A stretch of DNA of 64,000 nt from Escherichia phage T5: sequence record AY587007.1; one strand, given 5' to 3'. How positions within the stretch are numbered: the stretch's first letter is position 1; the number at the start of each line of letters is the position of its first letter. The notes under the pieces were generated by a model that was not told the DNA's origin, searched no databases, and was given only the letters and a program-made list of their open reading frames with translations. Below are positions 5,854-41,972 of this stretch, one piece after another. Both the position numbers and the translations under genes were made by a program.

Positions 5854-6042
5854 TGTTATAGTTTCCTTATGTTATTAATTTAATCTCTATTATATTATAT
5901 CAAAACCATTAGCAAACTACCTAATGAGTTTTTCAGGTTTAATTAGCAGACTCATAATCACTTTAAAATCCTATTAGCCAACTAACTATATTTTGTTATA
6001 TAATAACTGCATAAATTAGTTAGTGAGAAACACTATCATTTA

Positions 6043-6051
6043 AGTTATCCA
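6043..6051 (+). promoter_or_regulatory. DnaA-box consensus TTATCCACA
   Basis: exact 9-mer match; second exact copy at 6116-6124. Confidence 0.5.
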
Positions 6052-6115
6052 CAGCCTTATACATTTTGTAAATTAACTTGACACAATAGGAAGGCTTTAT
6101 AGCACTTTTACACAG

Positions 6116-6124
6116 ACTTATCCA
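6116..6124 (+). promoter_or_regulatory. DnaA-box consensus TTATCCACA
   Basis: exact 9-mer match. Confidence 0.5.
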
Positions 6125-6132
6125 CAGGTTAT

Positions 6133-6152
6133 TCCACTGTATAAATATACAG
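6133..6152. promoter_or_regulatory. LexA (SOS) box-like palindrome CACTGTATAAATATACAGGG
   Basis: core CTGT-N8-ACAG with AT-rich spacer; weaker flanks than the partner at 9330-9349. Confidence 0.4.
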
Positions 6153-6416
6153 GGTAAATGGAAGACATATTATAATGATGCCCAAAATAAGCGGCCTAAA
6201 ACGCTTTCTAACGAGCCAAACGCTATAGGGTAATATTAAAGTAAAGCCTCACGCGTCGCCTGGTGGCTTCGCCGTGTTTTGCTCTTTACTATACCGCTGC
6301 GCGGTTAGCATAAAACTAGGCGCTAGGCAAGGAAAATAAAAAGGTAAAATAATATTTGCCTATGCTAGAAAATTACCTTTATCATTCACTCACCGATTAA
6401 CGAGGGAGGCCAACAA

Positions 6417-7154
6417 ATGCGGCTATATAAACCAGATAACGCAACCGTCTTAAAGGGCGCCTTGCGCAACCTGCTGGATGGTAGCAGGACAACCAGCATT
6501 AAACATTTTATTAACAAGGCTGAAACTATTCACCAAAACTTTTTTAATGATTATGATGCCTATGATATGGATAGTTTTCTACCCCTATATAAGCAGGGGG
6601 CAACGATTATCTTATATAATCGTGATTGCCATATCTTTACGGGCAGGGGAGCGGGGCCGGATACTGATTTTATTGTTGCGCAGGGTAATAATATCGTTGC
6701 GTATCATAGCAATTCAGGCCGTCAATCATTTAATATAAATAATTTTGAGCTTGTTGGGCTTGAATTAATAAACGGACTTTCTAGCCTTGAGGGATTTTTA
6801 GATGTTATCTGGAAGTATTTATCTGCTGGATGGCATAGACCTGATAGTGATGGATCTCAATATACGGCTGTAATGGCTTTTGATGGCGACGGTAATTTTT
6901 TATTACCATCGGAATTATATCCGTATGTATATAATGAGCTAGTACAAGAAGCGGGTTTTATTTTCTGGAAAGATGAGAATCAGATCATTGACAACACGGA
7001 AAAACATGCTGTAAATTCTAACACTCAAAGCGTTAACACTCAAATCACTGAAAACAAAGGAAAAAATGCCATGACCAAGATCGCTAATATCGTTGCCGCT
7101 AATAAATCCGCCGTTGTAAATGCTGCAAAACTGGAAGCGGGCAAATTGCATTAA
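6417..7154 (+). CDS. hypothetical protein
   Basis: 245-aa ORF with strong RBS GAGGGAGG 7 nt upstream of ATG; first gene of the plus-strand block between the inverted repeats. Confidence 0.55.
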   Translation: MRLYKPDNATVLKGALRNLLDGSRTTSIKHFINKAETIHQNFFNDYDAYDMDSFLPLYKQGATIILYNRDCHIFTGRGAGPDTDFIVAQGNNIVAYHSNSGRQSFNINNFELVGLELINGLSSLEGFLDVIWKYLSAGWHRPDSDGSQYTAVMAFDGDGNFLLPSELYPYVYNELVQEAGFIFWKDENQIIDNTEKHAVNSNTQSVNTQITENKGKNAMTKIANIVAANKSAVVNAAKLEAGKLH

Positions 7155-33584: not shown

Positions 33585-33770
33585 TTACTCAGCTTTGAGT
33601 TTTTCAATAGCTGCATTAAGTTCTTTAAGAAACTCTTTTCGTACATTAAGACGATTGAGACTTACTAGTATATCATGTTTAAGCTCTTCGATGTATTTCT
33701 TCTCAACTTCAATATTGTTGATAGTGCTATCACGATGAACTTCTAGCTGCGCAATCACATTCTTGGACAT
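33585..33770 (-). CDS. small coiled-coil protein
   Basis: 61-aa ORF. Confidence 0.35.
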   Translation of the reverse strand: MSKNVIAQLEVHRDSTINNIEVEKKYIEELKHDILVSLNRLNVRKEFLKELNAAIEKLKAE

Positions 33771-37184: not shown

Positions 37185-37213
37185 TTATAAATATATTATA
37201 TTAGAAATTTAGC
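37185..37213 (-). promoter_or_regulatory. T5-type early promoter, -35 TTGCTA, 17 bp, -10 TATAAT
   Basis: hexamers on minus strand, positioned to transcribe the Ser/Met tRNAs. Confidence 0.55.
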
Positions 37214-37719
37214 TTCATAGCAAGAAAATTTTTCAAGTTTTCGGTAGACATCTCATCCACATCTACAGGGGAAACAAACCCATTTAACTGTCTAGCAAAC
37301 TTTTCGCCAGCAGGATCATTATCCCCAACAGCTACCAATTTAAAAGGTAGTAATTTCAATTGCTTTAATAGCGCTTTTCCTGGAGAAGAACCCAACATTG
37401 CCAGGGCTGGATAACCAGCGTTATGTAACGCAACTGCCTTAAATACAGATTCAGCAATCAATACTACTTTTTCATCTCCATTGAGAGTTTCTAGTCCCCA
37501 TACACACTGTGTAGTAGAATAAGTAAAATATCTAGCTTCAAGGGGGCACTTACCATGACCTTTTGGAGCAGAAGGATTATAAGTCTGATAGCCTCTCAAC
37601 ATCCCAGAGAAGTCATACAAGGGGACTGTTAGCCATCCTTCCGGGCTTAACCAGCAATGATATTTATCTGTATCAAACCCTCTAGATAAGAGATGTTCTG
37701 TTAGTTCATCAACAGTCAT
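37201..37719 (-). CDS. Toprim-domain protein
   Basis: 172 aa from ATG 37719 (RBS GAGAGAGGA); conserved Glu in VVLIAESVF and DxD in AVGDNDPAG as in Toprim folds. Confidence 0.4.
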   Translation of the reverse strand: MTVDELTEHLLSRGFDTDKYHCWLSPEGWLTVPLYDFSGMLRGYQTYNPSAPKGHGKCPLEARYFTYSTTQCVWGLETLNGDEKVVLIAESVFKAVALHNAGYPALAMLGSSPGKALLKQLKLLPFKLVAVGDNDPAGEKFARQLNGFVSPVDVDEMSTENLKNFLAMKLNF

Positions 37720-37749
37720 ATTAGATTCCTCTCTCAAATTTATAAATAT

Positions 37750-37778
37750 ATTATACAGAGAATTTAGCATTCAAGCAA
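37750..37778 (-). promoter_or_regulatory. T5-type early promoter, -35 TTGCTT, 17 bp, -10 TATAAT
   Basis: hexamers on minus strand. Confidence 0.55.
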
Positions 37779-37923: not shown

Positions 37924-37985
37924 ATATGTTATGGATGAGTGATCAAAGAGACACACATTTTCTATATACTAGGAGGTGTCAAAAA

Positions 37986-38393
37986 ATGACAGAAGAAGTA
38001 GCTAATAGTCCTGAGACCGTCGCTAGCGTTGCAGCAGAACTGCACCGTCACGAGGAATCAGATAAGAAAAAGTGGGAGAAGGTCAGAGCCTACGAAGAAG
38101 AACATTGTGAACACGATGATAAAGATGATGAACATTGTCATAAATATGGAAAACATAAAATGCAAGAACCAGTAAACGTATTTACTAACGGCTTCCCTGG
38201 CATGGGTGCATTCCCGGCTAACGCAGGTGCTTTCGGTGGTGAAGGTATGGGCCTATTCGGAGCTATCCTAATCGGTGCTCTATTAACAGGCGGATTTGGT
38301 GGTTTTGGTAGTTTTGTCGCGGTGCTGGCGTTGCCGCTGAAGGAACTGCTGTGGACGCGATCCTTTCTAACCAAGATACTGCAAGTATTCTAG
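37986..38393 (+). CDS. His/acidic N-terminus, Gly-rich hydrophobic C-terminus protein
   Basis: start at ATG 37986 with RBS AGGAGGT; segments HCEHDDKDDEHCH and GFPGMGAFPANAGAFGGEGMGLFGAILIGALLTGGFGGFG. Confidence 0.5.
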   Translation: MTEEVANSPETVASVAAELHRHEESDKKKWEKVRAYEEEHCEHDDKDDEHCHKYGKHKMQEPVNVFTNGFPGMGAFPANAGAFGGEGMGLFGAILIGALLTGGFGGFGSFVAVLALPLKELLWTRSFLTKILQVF

Positions 38394-38950
38394 CTGCAAT
38401 CAACACTACTCGTACAGAAGCTAACCAGGACACTGGGGCTGTTCTAAGCGCAGTAAACGGTGTGGGAGCTGCTCAAGCTGCTAGCACTCAGCAAGTTCTG
38501 ACTACTATCTACGGTACAGGTGCTAATCTGTCAAACCAGATCTGTGCTGAAACTCGTAACGTTATTCAGGGTCAGTTCGATCTTTCTCGTCAGATGGATC
38601 AATCTTTCGCTGCTAACCAGATCGCACGTGCTCAAGATAAGTTTGACTCTGCTCAGATTGCTTTCCAGCAGTCTATTCAGACTAACAACCAGTTTGCCGC
38701 TGTTCAGGCTCAGATGTGTGCTAACCAGAATGCTATAGAACGTCAGCTTGCTGAATGTTGCTGTGAGCTTCAGACTGCGATCGCCGGTGTAACTACTGCG
38801 CGTATCCAGGACGAACTGAATGAATGCCGTCTGCGCGAAGCAATCGCTGCAGGTAGCGGTGCAAATGGTCAGGTAATCAACCAAATCGCTGTAAGTCTTG
38901 GTGCTATCACTCAGACTCTGGCTGGTCTGCAGGCTAAACTGCCGGCTTAA
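38351..38950 (+). CDS. Ala/Gln-rich low-complexity protein
   Basis: GTG start with RBS AAGGA; overlaps the previous gene by 43 nt in the -1 frame; contains CCC triplet AECCCE. Confidence 0.4.
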   Translation: MDAILSNQDTASILAAINTTRTEANQDTGAVLSAVNGVGAAQAASTQQVLTTIYGTGANLSNQICAETRNVIQGQFDLSRQMDQSFAANQIARAQDKFDSAQIAFQQSIQTNNQFAAVQAQMCANQNAIERQLAECCCELQTAIAGVTTARIQDELNECRLREAIAAGSGANGQVINQIAVSLGAITQTLAGLQAKLPA

Positions 38951-38971: not shown

Positions 38972-39388
38972 ATGAGTAAATATGGTTTTGTAAACAACGG
39001 ATTTAATCAACAAATGGGCTCCCAGCAGCCCGTTCCGGGTCTGGATAATCCTTACCTACAACAGTTGCAACAGCGTTTAGCAGAAGCGCAACAGATGCAG
39101 CAACAACTCCAGCAAAACCCTGGAAGTGTGAGTCCTATGCAAATGATGCAGCAAATGAGCGGGCAGTCGCAAATGCCTCAACAAATGCAGCAACAGGTGC
39201 CTCAGCAGCAAGTTCAGCAACAAACCCAACAACCGCAGGTTTCTGCGGAAGGACAGGCAGTACTAGCCCTTTTCGAAGATTTCGCAAAGACAGAGGATGG
39301 GAAACAGCTTGTATCACTTATGGGTAAGTTTAATAGCTTCTGCCAAAGCCAAGTTGCAAAAGCTCAAAATGGTGATAATAGCTCCTAA
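38972..39388 (+). CDS. Gln-rich low-complexity protein
   Basis: 138 aa with strong RBS AAGGGGAGGAG; long Q-rich runs. Confidence 0.5.
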   Translation: MSKYGFVNNGFNQQMGSQQPVPGLDNPYLQQLQQRLAEAQQMQQQLQQNPGSVSPMQMMQQMSGQSQMPQQMQQQVPQQQVQQQTQQPQVSAEGQAVLALFEDFAKTEDGKQLVSLMGKFNSFCQSQVAKAQNGDNSS

Positions 39389-39397
39389 GGAGGAATT

Positions 39398-39592
39398 ATG
39401 TGTTGCAGAAAATCTGTTTCGTGCTGCCCAATGCCTGTAGCACGTTGTTGCTCTCCAGCAATGTTTACACAAATACCGGCGTTCAATCCCTTTGCCTTTA
39501 AGCCTACTCTTATCCTGCCCCCTAGAGTAGATTTTCAGTCAAGATTGGCCTCCCGTATGGGTGGTTGCTGTAATAAGAGTATATGGTTCTAA
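39398..39592 (+). CDS. Cys-rich small protein
   Basis: 64 aa with RBS AAGGAGG; CC doublets (MCC, SCC, RCC, GCC). Confidence 0.5.
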   Translation: MCCRKSVSCCPMPVARCCSPAMFTQIPAFNPFAFKPTLILPPRVDFQSRLASRMGGCCNKSIWF

Positions 39593-39609
39593 AGAACCAA
39601 TAATAAAAA

Positions 39610-39641
39610 CCCCTAGTCGAAAGACTTAGGGGTTTTCTTTT
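39610..39641 (+). terminator. rho-independent terminator
   Basis: hairpin CCCCTAGTC-GAAA-GACTTAGGGG followed by TTTTCTTTT. Confidence 0.6.
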
Positions 39642-39688
39642 ATCTTAAATACAGAAAAGCCCTGCGCTCTCCAGGGAACACAGGGCTT
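39641..39688 (-). terminator. probable rho-independent terminator for the SPFH gene
   Basis: 8-bp stem AAGCCCTG/CAGGGCTT, then U-rich run on the minus-strand RNA. Confidence 0.4.
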
Positions 39689-39711: not shown

Positions 39712-40659
39712 TTACTTGTTACGCATATCCATAATCATCTGGCCATCGTAACCAGTGCCAACTACTGTTTGCGGTACACCACCTTGATATTTCTGAGCAC
39801 GAATCATTTCAACTTCTAGTTGTTTCCAGCGAATCATCTCAGGAGTAATAGTACGTTGCAGAGCGGCGTTAGCTTCGGCTTCTTTCTTAGCTGCGTACAG
39901 TTTAGCATCTGCATCACGTTCGTTTGCAATAGCCTGGTTGTTACGAGCTTCACGATCTGCTTCTGCTTGTTTAACCTTCTGCTGTGCTTCTTGTTCAACA
40001 CGAGCCAATTCAGCTTTCGCAGCATTAACTTGTTCTTCACGAACTTTGGTATTCTGTACCTGTTCCATGATTACAGGCGGCAAAGTAATATCCTGAAGGA
40101 ACACTTGCTTAACTGTGTAACCATAAGGGCGTGCGTACTCTTCAACTTCCTGCTGAATTGCAGTTTGCAATTGTGCTTGAATTTTAGCATCAAACAAATC
40201 TTGTGCTTTAGGTACAGACTTACCAAACTCACGAATAGTAGATAGTAATTTCTCAGTTACATACTTATCTAGAGCCTGATCCTGAGTACCTGCGTTAATA
40301 CGGTTAATCGGTGCCTTAGAACCATCAAACTGCAACATAACAGTCAGGTCAACAGTGGATTTAAACTTATCCTGGCTGGGAACCTGAAGTTTATCTAATT
40401 TTACAGCAATATCTTTTGTACTAAAAGTATCGAAAGATGCAAATGGGTTTACAAGATGGAAACCAGGTAATACTGGGTTAGGATCTACTTTACCCAGAAA
40501 TGTTTGGGTTTTAACCGTACCATCAGAAACAATAGTATATGAATTAAAAGCTAGGATTAAACCTGCTAAACCAACCACAGCACCAATACCCCAACGTTTA
40601 ATAGTGCGAACTACTTTTTGCTCAGAAGTCAGTTCTTTCATATTTTTAGTATTAAACAT
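39712..40659 (-). CDS. SPFH / band-7 (prohibitin-stomatin-like) membrane protein
   Basis: 315 aa; N-terminal transmembrane helix, SPFH-like core, long Ala/Glu/Gln-rich coiled-coil tail; RBS AAGGAA. Confidence 0.6.
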   Translation of the reverse strand: MFNTKNMKELTSEQKVVRTIKRWGIGAVVGLAGLILAFNSYTIVSDGTVKTQTFLGKVDPNPVLPGFHLVNPFASFDTFSTKDIAVKLDKLQVPSQDKFKSTVDLTVMLQFDGSKAPINRINAGTQDQALDKYVTEKLLSTIREFGKSVPKAQDLFDAKIQAQLQTAIQQEVEEYARPYGYTVKQVFLQDITLPPVIMEQVQNTKVREEQVNAAKAELARVEQEAQQKVKQAEADREARNNQAIANERDADAKLYAAKKEAEANAALQRTITPEMIRWKQLEVEMIRAQKYQGGVPQTVVGTGYDGQMIMDMRNK

Positions 40660-40693: not shown

Positions 40694-40768
40694 TGGCCGA
40701 GGTGACAGGATTCGAACCTGCATAAAGGAATTTAGAAGACTCCTGCCTCTCCCTTAGACTACACCCCG
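40694..40768 (-). tRNA. tRNA-Arg (anticodon TCT)
   Basis: clean cloverleaf; anticodon stem GGAGT/ATTCC; CCA encoded. Confidence 0.65.
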
Positions 40769-40885
40769 TTTAAGTATTTTTAAGAACTCTCGTAAAAACT
40801 CTTAAAAATACAGACGATACCGGGAGAGTCATAAGTCTCACTCATTAAGTATTTCAAGACAAAATACAGTAACGTCTATTATTTT

Positions 40886-40996
40886 CCAGTTTATGTCAAG
40901 GTGACTATACTTACTTATGCATATAAGGTCGCCATCTGGCAGATTACTCATAAGTCTTATAAAGTAAGTATTCCAGTTTAAGTCAAGGTGACTTAG
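40886..40996. repeat. two copies of CCAGTTTA(T/A)GTCAAGGTGACT ~87 bp apart in a non-coding stretch
   Basis: direct repeat read from sequence at about 40886-40908 and 40973-40995. Confidence 0.5.
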
Positions 40997-41352
40997 TGGT
41001 TATACACTGCATATACGAGTGCTCGGTTAGGTTAGGGTCATGACTCCCTACCTTTTGCTGCCCTCAACAGGAGTTATCGCGCGTTTACCTGTATGTTGTG
41101 CACCATTAGTCACGACTTTCACGTGATCCTTTCCCACTTTGTTGGTAGCTTGAAAAACTACTCCGATATGGAGGAAAAACTTCACTACCTAGAATACCTT
41201 CTAAAGTTCTTCTTTAGCCTGGACATAGTTAAATCGTAATAAAACTATTCAGCAGACTGGTTGGTTAGTCTGGAACCAACTACCGCGTGGTTTAGGCAGT
41301 GCGCAACTAACCTCGGAAGCTTTTACGTTAAAAGCACCAGTTATCCAGTTCT

Positions 41353-41424
41353 TACCGACCGTAGGATTCGAACCTACATCTTCCACCAGTTACGGCTTGA
41401 TAATACCGTTTATACTAGGTCGGC
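41353..41424 (-). other. tRNA-like element without CCA, no canonical anticodon arm
   Basis: good acceptor pairing and perfect T-arm (GTAGG TTCGAAT CCTAC); middle does not fold as D plus anticodon arms. Confidence 0.3.
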
Positions 41425-41500
41425 AGTGTTACTACATAAGTGATTTCCACACCCCACTATCAATAAATTAGAGAAGAATTACTCTCTAATTTATGAATAT

Positions 41501-41529
41501 ATTATACAGAATTTATAAGCATTTAGCAA
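41501..41529 (-). promoter_or_regulatory. T5-type early promoter, -35 TTGCTA, 17 bp, -10 TATAAT
   Basis: hexamers on minus strand. Confidence 0.6.
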
Positions 41530-41537
41530 ATGAATTT

Positions 41538-41972
41538 TTAGAAAAACTCGCTAGCAATCAAGGCGGCTGTTTTACCATCATAACGCCCTGAAAACTCTGC
41601 CTTAATAGTTTTCATTAAGAGAGCTTTGGTAATACCTGGGTTTAGCTTAACCAATTCTGCAAAATATTTACGAATTTCAGTTTCAGTTAGCTGTTGTAGT
41701 GCATAATCATGCTCTAAACGCGCTAAAAGATCTAAGTATTCAGCATCAGGAGTATAGTCAACATTCGATTTTTCAGCGGCAATCCGTGTATTCTCAATTG
41801 CTTTGAGTTGTGATTTCAACCAGTTAGTAAACCCCAGCTCAGTTACGCAATCTTTATCAATACGTTGCAGGTCTCCTAGAACCGTACTTAGATGCTTAAC
41901 TGATACAGCGTCACCACTTTTGCGAGCAGCTTCAATCAACTCTCGCAGTACATAAAGCATATTCATGCCCAT
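41538..41972 (-). CDS. hypothetical protein
   Basis: 144-aa ORF. Confidence 0.45.
   Translation of the reverse strand: MGMNMLYVLRELIEAARKSGDAVSVKHLSTVLGDLQRIDKDCVTELGFTNWLKSQLKAIENTRIAAEKSNVDYTPDAEYLDLLARLEHDYALQQLTETEIRKYFAELVKLNPGITKALLMKTIKAEFSGRYDGKTAALIASEFF

Follow-up and report, generated by a model that had tools for sequence, protein, structure and literature searches.

T5.080 of phage T5: a membrane-anchored SPFH/band-7 protein with predicted periplasmic topology, dispensable on laboratory Escherichia coli

The DNA analysed here is a stretch of 64,000 nucleotides from Escherichia phage T5 (sequence record AY587007.1, hereafter the window), and the subject of this report is T5.080, a minus-strand gene that lies between a tRNA-Arg gene and two tandem terminator-like hairpins. 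The first-pass annotation of this stretch had placed here, in a phage early region and immediately downstream of tRNA-Arg, an open reading frame (ORF) for an SPFH protein of 315 residues resembling prohibitin and stomatin. The ORF list, the ARAGORN and Rfam tRNA predictions, the Pfam match and the AlphaFold2 and Foldseek results all agree with this description, and the gene indeed falls in the early, deletable tRNA region of T5. T5.080 is a bona fide membrane-anchored SPFH/band-7 protein with the complete architecture of a cage subunit. The stretch is identified as T5 by the 3 kb around the ORF, which are 100% identical (rounded) to AY543070/NC_005859, and T5.080 itself matches the T5 database records at 100% or 99.7%.

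The SPFH assignment, which the first-pass annotation had made dependent on a profile match, is carried by a domain search in which Pfam Band_7 (PF01145) is found at E = 2e-17 and 64.2 bits (cut-off 23.6), over residues 52-225 and profile positions 13-176 of 176. The protein also matches PHROG 200 (E = 2.9e-86), and an NCBIfam scan of T5.080 gave no match. In a sequence search of the PDB, the best match is E. coli QmcA (E = 1.8e-6 for a single-sequence query and 2.3e-7 for the profile), and human prohibitin-2 and -1 are also retrieved (prohibitin E = 8.6e-5). An AlphaFold2 model of the monomer, built from an alignment of 25 homologues and with a mean predicted local distance difference test (pLDDT) of 79, runs from a transmembrane (TM) helix (residues 12-38) through an alpha/beta domain (41-192) into one helix (195-270) and then another (273-290), followed by a C-terminal segment with short strands; the C-terminal end is modelled with low confidence (pLDDT down to 39-47). 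When compared with known structures by Foldseek, this model aligns over 270-307 columns to SPFH cage subunits, with a probability of 1.00 and E-values from 6e-15 to 1e-8. The matches comprise erlin-1/2 (6e-15), prohibitin (4e-13), HflK/C (2e-12), stomatin, QmcA and flotillin, with vault more distant. The N-terminal TM segment is conserved in all 25 aligned homologues; the same alignment shows an invariant VPSQDK motif at residues 93-98 and a conserved C-terminal motif, Y291-G293-P296-T298-G301.

As an SPFH protein, T5.080 has been on record since 2004 and is not new in that respect: GenBank AY734508 already lists PF01145/COG0330 for T5p078. For many relatives the annotation reads SPFH, band-7 or prohibitin family, and at NCBI some phage orthologues appear under 'prohibitin family' or 'PHB domain'. 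Two other database labels are misleading and can be corrected. The RefSeq label 'lipoprotein', inherited from PHROG 200, is ruled out since T5.080 has no cysteine at all and therefore no possible lipobox. The 'putative membrane protease' of AY734508 is likewise ruled out, as Pfam gives Band_7 only and no catalytic domain, the label being derived from the name of COG0330; a weak PHROG 'protease' match is confined to the helix, at residues 185-288 (E = 0.0011). A literature search for T5.080/T5p078 or its accessions returned no paper on the protein.

The features of the locus are collected in Table 1. With regard to transcription, the annotated early promoter P16-17 contains the hexamers TTGCTA-17-TATAAT at 41529-41501, which agree with the consensus at 10 of 12 positions and make up the best sigma-70 site of the region and the only good one upstream; the terminator scan gives no minus-strand terminator between P16-17 and T5.080. 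Because of this layout, the simplest reading, and a plausible one, is that T5.080 would be co-transcribed with tRNA-Arg, which lies upstream and ends 34 nt before the ATG. The tRNA-like element within RNAX has an odd anticodon, ACT, and is annotated in related phages as 'tRNA-OTHER'; it could represent a tRNA, degenerate or non-canonical, that is released by processing from the transcript of tRNA-Arg. At the other end, the first-pass annotation had given T5.080 its own terminator. Two strong hairpins do follow the stop codon, the first lying 24 nt past it with a 13-bp stem that includes 7 G-C pairs, and the two folded together reach -43.3 kcal/mol (z = -5.6), a stability matched by none of 200 shuffles. 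However, the second hairpin is the bidirectional ter1, common to T5.080 and the convergent genes T5.077-079, and this second terminator is therefore not strictly that of T5.080. The annotated major nick site of T5 (major DNA single-chain interruption, consensus ...GCGC...) maps to ~39667/39668, in the loop and 3' arm of hairpin 1.

Table 1. Features in and around T5.080, in window coordinates
Feature	Position	Strand	Basis
CDS T5.080 (= T5p078 in AY734508)	39712..40659, stop included	-	ORF list; 315 aa, ATG start
TM signal-anchor, codons 23-42	40534..40593	-	Kyte-Doolittle maximum 1.79 at residues 25-43; single hydrophobic segment
SPFH alpha/beta domain, codons 41-192	40084..40539	-	AlphaFold2 pLDDT 80-91; Pfam; Foldseek to stomatin and PH-stomatin cores
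Ala/Glu/Lys/Gln-rich helix, codons 195-270 (SPFH 'CC1' wall helix)	39850..40077	-	AlphaFold2; 76 residues, uninterrupted
Helix 273-290 and C-terminal segment, codons 273-315 (cap region in SPFH cages)	39715..39843	-	AlphaFold2
Shine-Dalgarno sequence AAGGA	40669-40665	-	Read from sequence; 5 nt upstream of ATG
tRNA-Arg, anticodon UCU (annotated tRNAR)	40694..40768	-	ARAGORN; Rfam tRNA 49.3 bits
RNAX, annotated 719-nt stable RNA, function unassigned in annotation	40769..41487	-	Annotation; precedes tRNA-Arg
tRNA-like element within RNAX	41353-41424	-	ARAGORN 'tRNA-Ser(act)'; Rfam tRNA 38.3 bits, gathering score 29
Promoter P16-17, annotated early	41475..41549	-	AY543070/AY734508 annotation, offset 79
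Terminator-like hairpin 1	39647..39688 with U-rich tail (hairpin 39657-39688)	-	Terminator scan, fold
Hairpin 2, annotated 'efficient bidirectional rho-independent terminator ter1'	~39599..39641	both	Annotation, sequence, fold

Across T5.080, window positions equal T5 positions minus 79; the offset to NC_005859 drifts along the window, from 0 at gene A1 to 78, 79 and 80 between 36.5 and 44.5 kb. Base by base, 8 kb of the window differ from AY543070 by 7 mismatches and two single-base indels. One such difference falls within T5.080, at window position 39886, where the plus strand has C and AY543070 has G. This is the third position of codon 258, which by our own reading of the codon is Lys in the window and Asn in AY543070, at a variable position of the long helix.

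The orientation of the protein in the membrane can be approached through its N-terminus. The N-tail of 22 residues holds six Lys or Arg and two Asp or Glu (residues 1-22), for a net charge of +4; a net-positive tail is found in 25 of the 25 aligned homologues, and in 209 of 283 relatives the tail is more positive than the 15 residues that follow the TM segment. Furthermore, 17 of the 291 full-length relatives carry a signal peptide with a canonical lipobox in place of the signal-anchor. The lipobox cysteine sits at the TM/SPFH junction, directly ahead of the first SPFH strand (as in LLGSC up to the junction and SIETVPAGH after it); Morganella phage vB_Mm5 has one of these lipobox variants. Since such lipoprotein variants are possible only with an exported domain, the SPFH domain of the clade is predicted to lie in the periplasm, and from the positive N-tail together with the lipobox variants we infer for T5.080 the N-in/C-out topology of HflK/C, the prohibitins and the erlins. 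In the orthologue of phage JLBYU43 (1501-2517 of the locus, 338 aa), the TM segment is present as an exact 23-residue tandem duplication, with TIKRWGIGAVVGLAGLILAFNSY occurring twice. Two TM segments, should the duplication be real, would place the SPFH domain on the opposite side of the membrane; an artefact of assembly is also conceivable.

Relatives of T5.080 are found in several groups of phages. Orthologues with 73-79% identity are present in T4-like Klebsiella, Enterobacter and Raoultella phages, the identity being ~60% in T4-like Aeromonas phages and ~35% in one N4-like Vibrio phage, and the T4-like copies always lie in the early accessory region near tdk. Such a distribution points to exchange of the gene between phage families. 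When 1.84 billion representative proteins were searched with a profile, the number of clusters was 85 below E = 1e-30 and 342 below E = 1e-10, and the BFVD contains 31 viral structure matches at E <= 1e-3; the T5.080 clade is a modest, distinct group inside the very large SPFH superfamily. A scan of GTDB genomes additionally identified copies on the chromosomes of Morganella and Providencia (at ~6001-6936 of each locus), with 57-59% identity, and, at 31-41% identity, in Methylophagaceae, Methylococcaceae and other Gammaproteobacteria, with a few in Desulfocapsaceae and Myxococcota. The neighbours of these chromosomal copies are unrelated housekeeping genes (permeases, regulators, trpBA-accD-folC), and no phage gene, NfeD, FtsH or second SPFH gene was found beside those of Morganella, Providencia and Methylophagaceae. 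A rough neighbour-joining tree, which carries no support values, has the methylotroph-type chromosomal genes as its outgroup, and the copies from Morganellaceae branch within the clade of phage genes. This topology is suggestive only, and would fit capture from a cell by a phage, spread among phages and a return into Morganellaceae, possibly followed by domestication.

T5.080 gives a single match per phage genome, and no SPFH domain is present in T5.076-079 or in T5.081-082. Among T5, three T4-like phages, one N4-like phage and the chromosomes, no NfeD, FtsH or second SPFH gene adjoins an orthologue. With one copy per genome and no partner gene, a homo-oligomer is therefore to be expected.

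Two sets of observations bear on whether the gene matters to the phage. The deletion strain T5st0 is viable and widely used in the laboratory, and is the standard strain for structural work. In its genome (AY692264) a truncated T5p066 joins a truncated T5p079, and T5p067-T5p078, tRNA-Arg and RNAX are missing; the st0 deletion endpoints given in AY734508 (T5 33667-33683 and 41882-41891) bracket T5.080. A knock-down of T5 by CRISPRi-ART across the whole genome (PMC11879866, supplementary file 16) scores T5.080 as 'Not Fit' with 7 guides. Because the deletion strain lives without the gene and the knock-down is 'Not Fit', T5.080 is dispensable on laboratory E. coli. The deletion phenotype proposed as a check in the first-pass annotation is answered by the same two sources, neither of which reveals a laboratory phenotype, and any role of T5.080 must therefore be conditional. 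As to retention, the ratio of non-synonymous to synonymous substitution rates (dN/dS, Nei-Gojobori) is 0.067 when T5.080 is compared with its orthologue in Salmonella phage fuchur and 0.047 for that of phage JLBYU43. A tblastn search at >=80% identity finds T5.080 in 438 phage records and the pre-early gene A1, with the window's own ORF as the query, in 442, a rough comparison in which the overlap of the two record sets is unchecked. T5.080 appears to be kept by almost every close T5-like phage of Escherichia and Salmonella, with BF23 reported as an exception. Taken together, a dN/dS of 0.05-0.07 and near-universal retention contradict neutrality. T5.080 is accessory and horizontally mobile, and stands outside the core replication, assembly and lysis machinery.

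The long helix varies in length in a regular manner. The distance between the conserved motifs that flank it is 52, 63, 74 and 85 residues in 1, 109, 22 and 1 sequences, respectively, with one outlier at 67, and the length of the helix therefore shifts by units of 11 residues. The inserted units resemble the neighbouring AKLYAAKKEAE (columns ~260-300 of the 25-homologue alignment). This resemblance suggests that the steps arose when an 11-residue unit was duplicated in tandem. Steps of this kind are compatible with a packed helical wall and are no proof of one.

The genes around T5.080 and its orthologues offer a varied picture. In Epseptimavirus (Salmonella phage fuchur, 2708-3942 of the locus), the SPFH gene is followed by genes for a nicotinamide mononucleotide (NMN) adenylyltransferase (NMNAT) and a PnuC transporter, and in the T4-like Klebsiella phage K14-2 (5077-6138 of the locus) by a bifunctional NMNAT/Nudix gene. 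In Enterobacter phage EC-W2 (4616-5671 of the locus), an unannotated ORF of 351 aa occupies the same position after the SPFH gene. That the SPFH and NMNAT genes move together between phage families was considered and rejected, the NMNATs of fuchur and K14-2 not being orthologous (27% over 33 aa); the repeated adjacency to genes for salvage of nicotinamide adenine dinucleotide (NAD) may reflect only a common accessory island. On the T5 side, T5.077 (321 aa in AY543070) is split in the window into two plus-strand ORFs, 37926-38393 and 38351-38950, that overlap in different frames. One base is missing here relative to AY543070 position 38394 (between window positions 38315 and 38316), through a genuine frameshift or else because the T5 records differ in their sequencing. 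T5.078 and T5.079 (38972-39592, plus strand) have no Pfam match. T5.078 is very rich in Gln, with runs such as QQMQQQLQQ, T5.079 has 9 cysteines in CC pairs among its 64 residues, and T5.077 carries an 'ECCCE' motif. T5.076 (37201-37770, minus strand) matches Pfam Toprim_2 at E = 4e-5. Its RefSeq name, 'DNA primase', may be misleading, as the supplementary table of the CRISPRi-ART study (PMC11879866) enters T5.076 as 'anti-defense, Known, Semi-Fit'.

From these observations, it seems on balance probable that T5.080 forms a homo-oligomeric, periplasm-facing cage at the inner membrane that encloses a host client and is useful under certain conditions only. The protein would be made early, as the last cistron of a transcript that runs from P16-17 through RNAX and tRNA-Arg to T5.080 and ends at the two tandem hairpins. 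Its insertion would be that of a type II (N-in) signal-anchor protein, with the SPFH domain and the helices on the periplasmic side as in HflK/C, and a single kind of subunit would assemble into a dome over a patch of the inner membrane. Such a cage could fence in a client of the host inner membrane and alter its access to substrates or partners, and client capture would tune the envelope for phage production in conditions that are absent from laboratory K-12 culture. By analogy with HflK/C and with the pairs of prohibitins and AAA proteases, the quality-control protease FtsH is the leading single candidate for this client, albeit a tentative one that may well prove wrong. The modulation of membrane proteases, which the first-pass annotation had attributed to SPFH proteins at large, is a property of some families of them (HflK/C with FtsH, QmcA with NfeD), whereas T5.080 has neither an NfeD nor a second SPFH partner and is no orthologue of HflK/C.

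Several points weigh against the proposed cage. No heptad register stands out in the long helix, and in a Fourier analysis of family hydrophobicity a period of 3.5 or 3.67 residues is not significant, 84 of 500 shuffles doing at least as well. A canonical coiled coil or hendecad register was dropped after these periodicity tests and only the 11-residue indel step was kept; of the 'long coiled-coil tail' of the first-pass annotation there remain a helix of 76 residues and a second helix, the usual wall-and-cap segment of SPFH proteins, but not the coiled-coil periodicity. Among the PDB sequence matches (E <= 1; profile E <= 0.01) there is no HflK/C chain, although the PDB contains such chains. 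Homology alone leaves the orientation unfixed, because the SPFH domain of the best sequence match, QmcA, faces the cytoplasm. The absence of a laboratory phenotype also fits a very small or zero benefit of the gene. Lastly, the role of SPFH genes in phages is called unknown in papers of 2020, 2025 and 2026.

A more far-reaching version of the proposal, which we regard as quite unlikely, takes the gene as a mobile module of T5-like, T4-like and N4-like phages whose periplasmic cage would capture or shield FtsH or another complex, for takeover or counter-defence on natural hosts only. If true, it would explain a retention of ~99% among close T5 relatives, strong purifying selection and exchange across families despite the lack of a laboratory phenotype.

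A different account dispenses with the client altogether: the SPFH assembly would be a general stabiliser that rigidifies or repairs the inner membrane under the stress of DNA entry and of holins. The full SPFH architecture is there for such a task, and the cellular homologues stand alone among unrelated housekeeping genes, which suggests a generic membrane role. Flotillin-type scaffolds offer an analogy, as does the Bacillus SPFH protein YdjI, which recruits PspA and is reported to link the phage-shock protein to the membrane. However, a periplasmic domain, if T5.080 has one, could not recruit cytoplasmic partners of the PspA type, no infection phenotype is seen in the laboratory, and nothing ties the protein directly to membrane stress. 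A stabiliser of this kind seems rather unlikely.

Counter-defence draws on the genomic setting: T5.080 would belong to accessory islands that also hold counter-defence genes, and would itself act against a host defence or stress that works at the membrane and is missing from K-12. The gene lies in the deletable tRNA island of T5 and beside NMNAT/PnuC or NMNAT/Nudix genes in Epseptimavirus and a Klebsiella phage, it is retained almost universally though dispensable, and it has been transferred between phage families. This is guilt by association, though, and the NMNAT adjacency is absent in T5 and in Aeromonas phages. No PADLOC family matches T5.080 at E <= 1, and we know of no defence system that is blocked by an SPFH protein. 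A counter-defence function appears improbable on this evidence.

Superinfection exclusion or lysis timing at the inner membrane, both put forward in the first-pass annotation, would suit a membrane protein that is expressed early, as inferred above, from a dispensable region, and accessory early membrane proteins often have exclusion roles. T5 already has a dedicated exclusion lipoprotein in Llp, which blocks FhuA. Moreover, T4-like and N4-like phages, whose receptors, DNA-entry and lysis systems are unrelated, encode the SPFH protein too, as do bacterial chromosomes, and T5.080 has no linkage to genes for a holin, spanin or endolysin. Knock-down does not change fitness, and lysis timing is therefore not grossly affected. 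The suggestions of exclusion, of lysis timing and of protection from a membrane-based host response thus find no support, and we give an exclusion or lysis function little credence. Hardest to believe is a functionless passenger or a virion-associated protein. Dispensability would suit the former, and the latter has a parallel in Erwinia jumbo phages, whose virions contain SPFH proteins by mass spectrometry, but the dN/dS values and near-universal retention speak against the one and the normal infectious virions that T5st0 makes without T5.080 against the other.

The question for T5.080 becomes that of the conditions in which the gene pays, and not the presence of an SPFH gene. What is added here are the predictions of a periplasmic topology and of a homo-oligomer, the expectation that no NfeD-type partner is involved and a pointer to hosts other than laboratory strains. 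SPFH genes are among the commoner accessory genes of phages (PHROG 200 of 38,880 family numbers), with many members in phages and giant viruses, and T5 is a tractable system for the function of viral SPFH proteins, since st0 provides a natural deletion strain and knock-down data are already available.

Among the characterised systems, HflK/HflC of E. coli, which forms an SPFH cage around the FtsH protease, shares with T5.080 the N-terminal anchor, the long wall helix and the C-terminal cap; its periplasmic SPFH domain with the N-terminus in is the arrangement predicted for T5.080, and the T5.080 model aligns over its full length to chains of 7vhq, 7wi3, 9cz2 and 9paw (E = 2e-12 to 1e-8). HflK and HflC are a paralogous pair, whereas T5.080 is one gene and does not have the long N-terminal tail of HflK; judged by sequence, T5.080 is not an HflK/C orthologue. 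The best structural matches are the eukaryotic type II cages of prohibitin-1/2 and erlin-1/2 (270-304 columns, at the E-values given above), which likewise have an N-terminal anchor and a domain on the non-cytoplasmic side, as predicted for T5.080. They differ in being hetero-oligomers of eukaryotic organelles, at 14-19% identity, in contrast to a single type of phage subunit. QmcA (YbbK), the best sequence match in the PDB, is matched across the TM segment, SPFH domain and helix, and forms a homo-oligomer with 26 chains in 8z5g. T5.080 departs from it in its positive N-tail of 22 residues, its predicted periplasmic domain and the lack of an NfeD neighbour. QmcA has nearly no N-tail and is encoded with its NfeD partner, YbbJ. 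Closer in descent are the chromosomal SPFH genes of Morganella, Providencia and the methylotrophs, which belong to the same clade and share the length and the TM-NSYT-SPFH junction; these are cellular and also uncharacterised. Finally, the same fold and length recur in other viral SPFH proteins, namely ORF139c of T4-like RB43, ORF064c of T4-like Aeh1 and those of Vibrio, Rhizobium and Streptomyces phages and of giant viruses.

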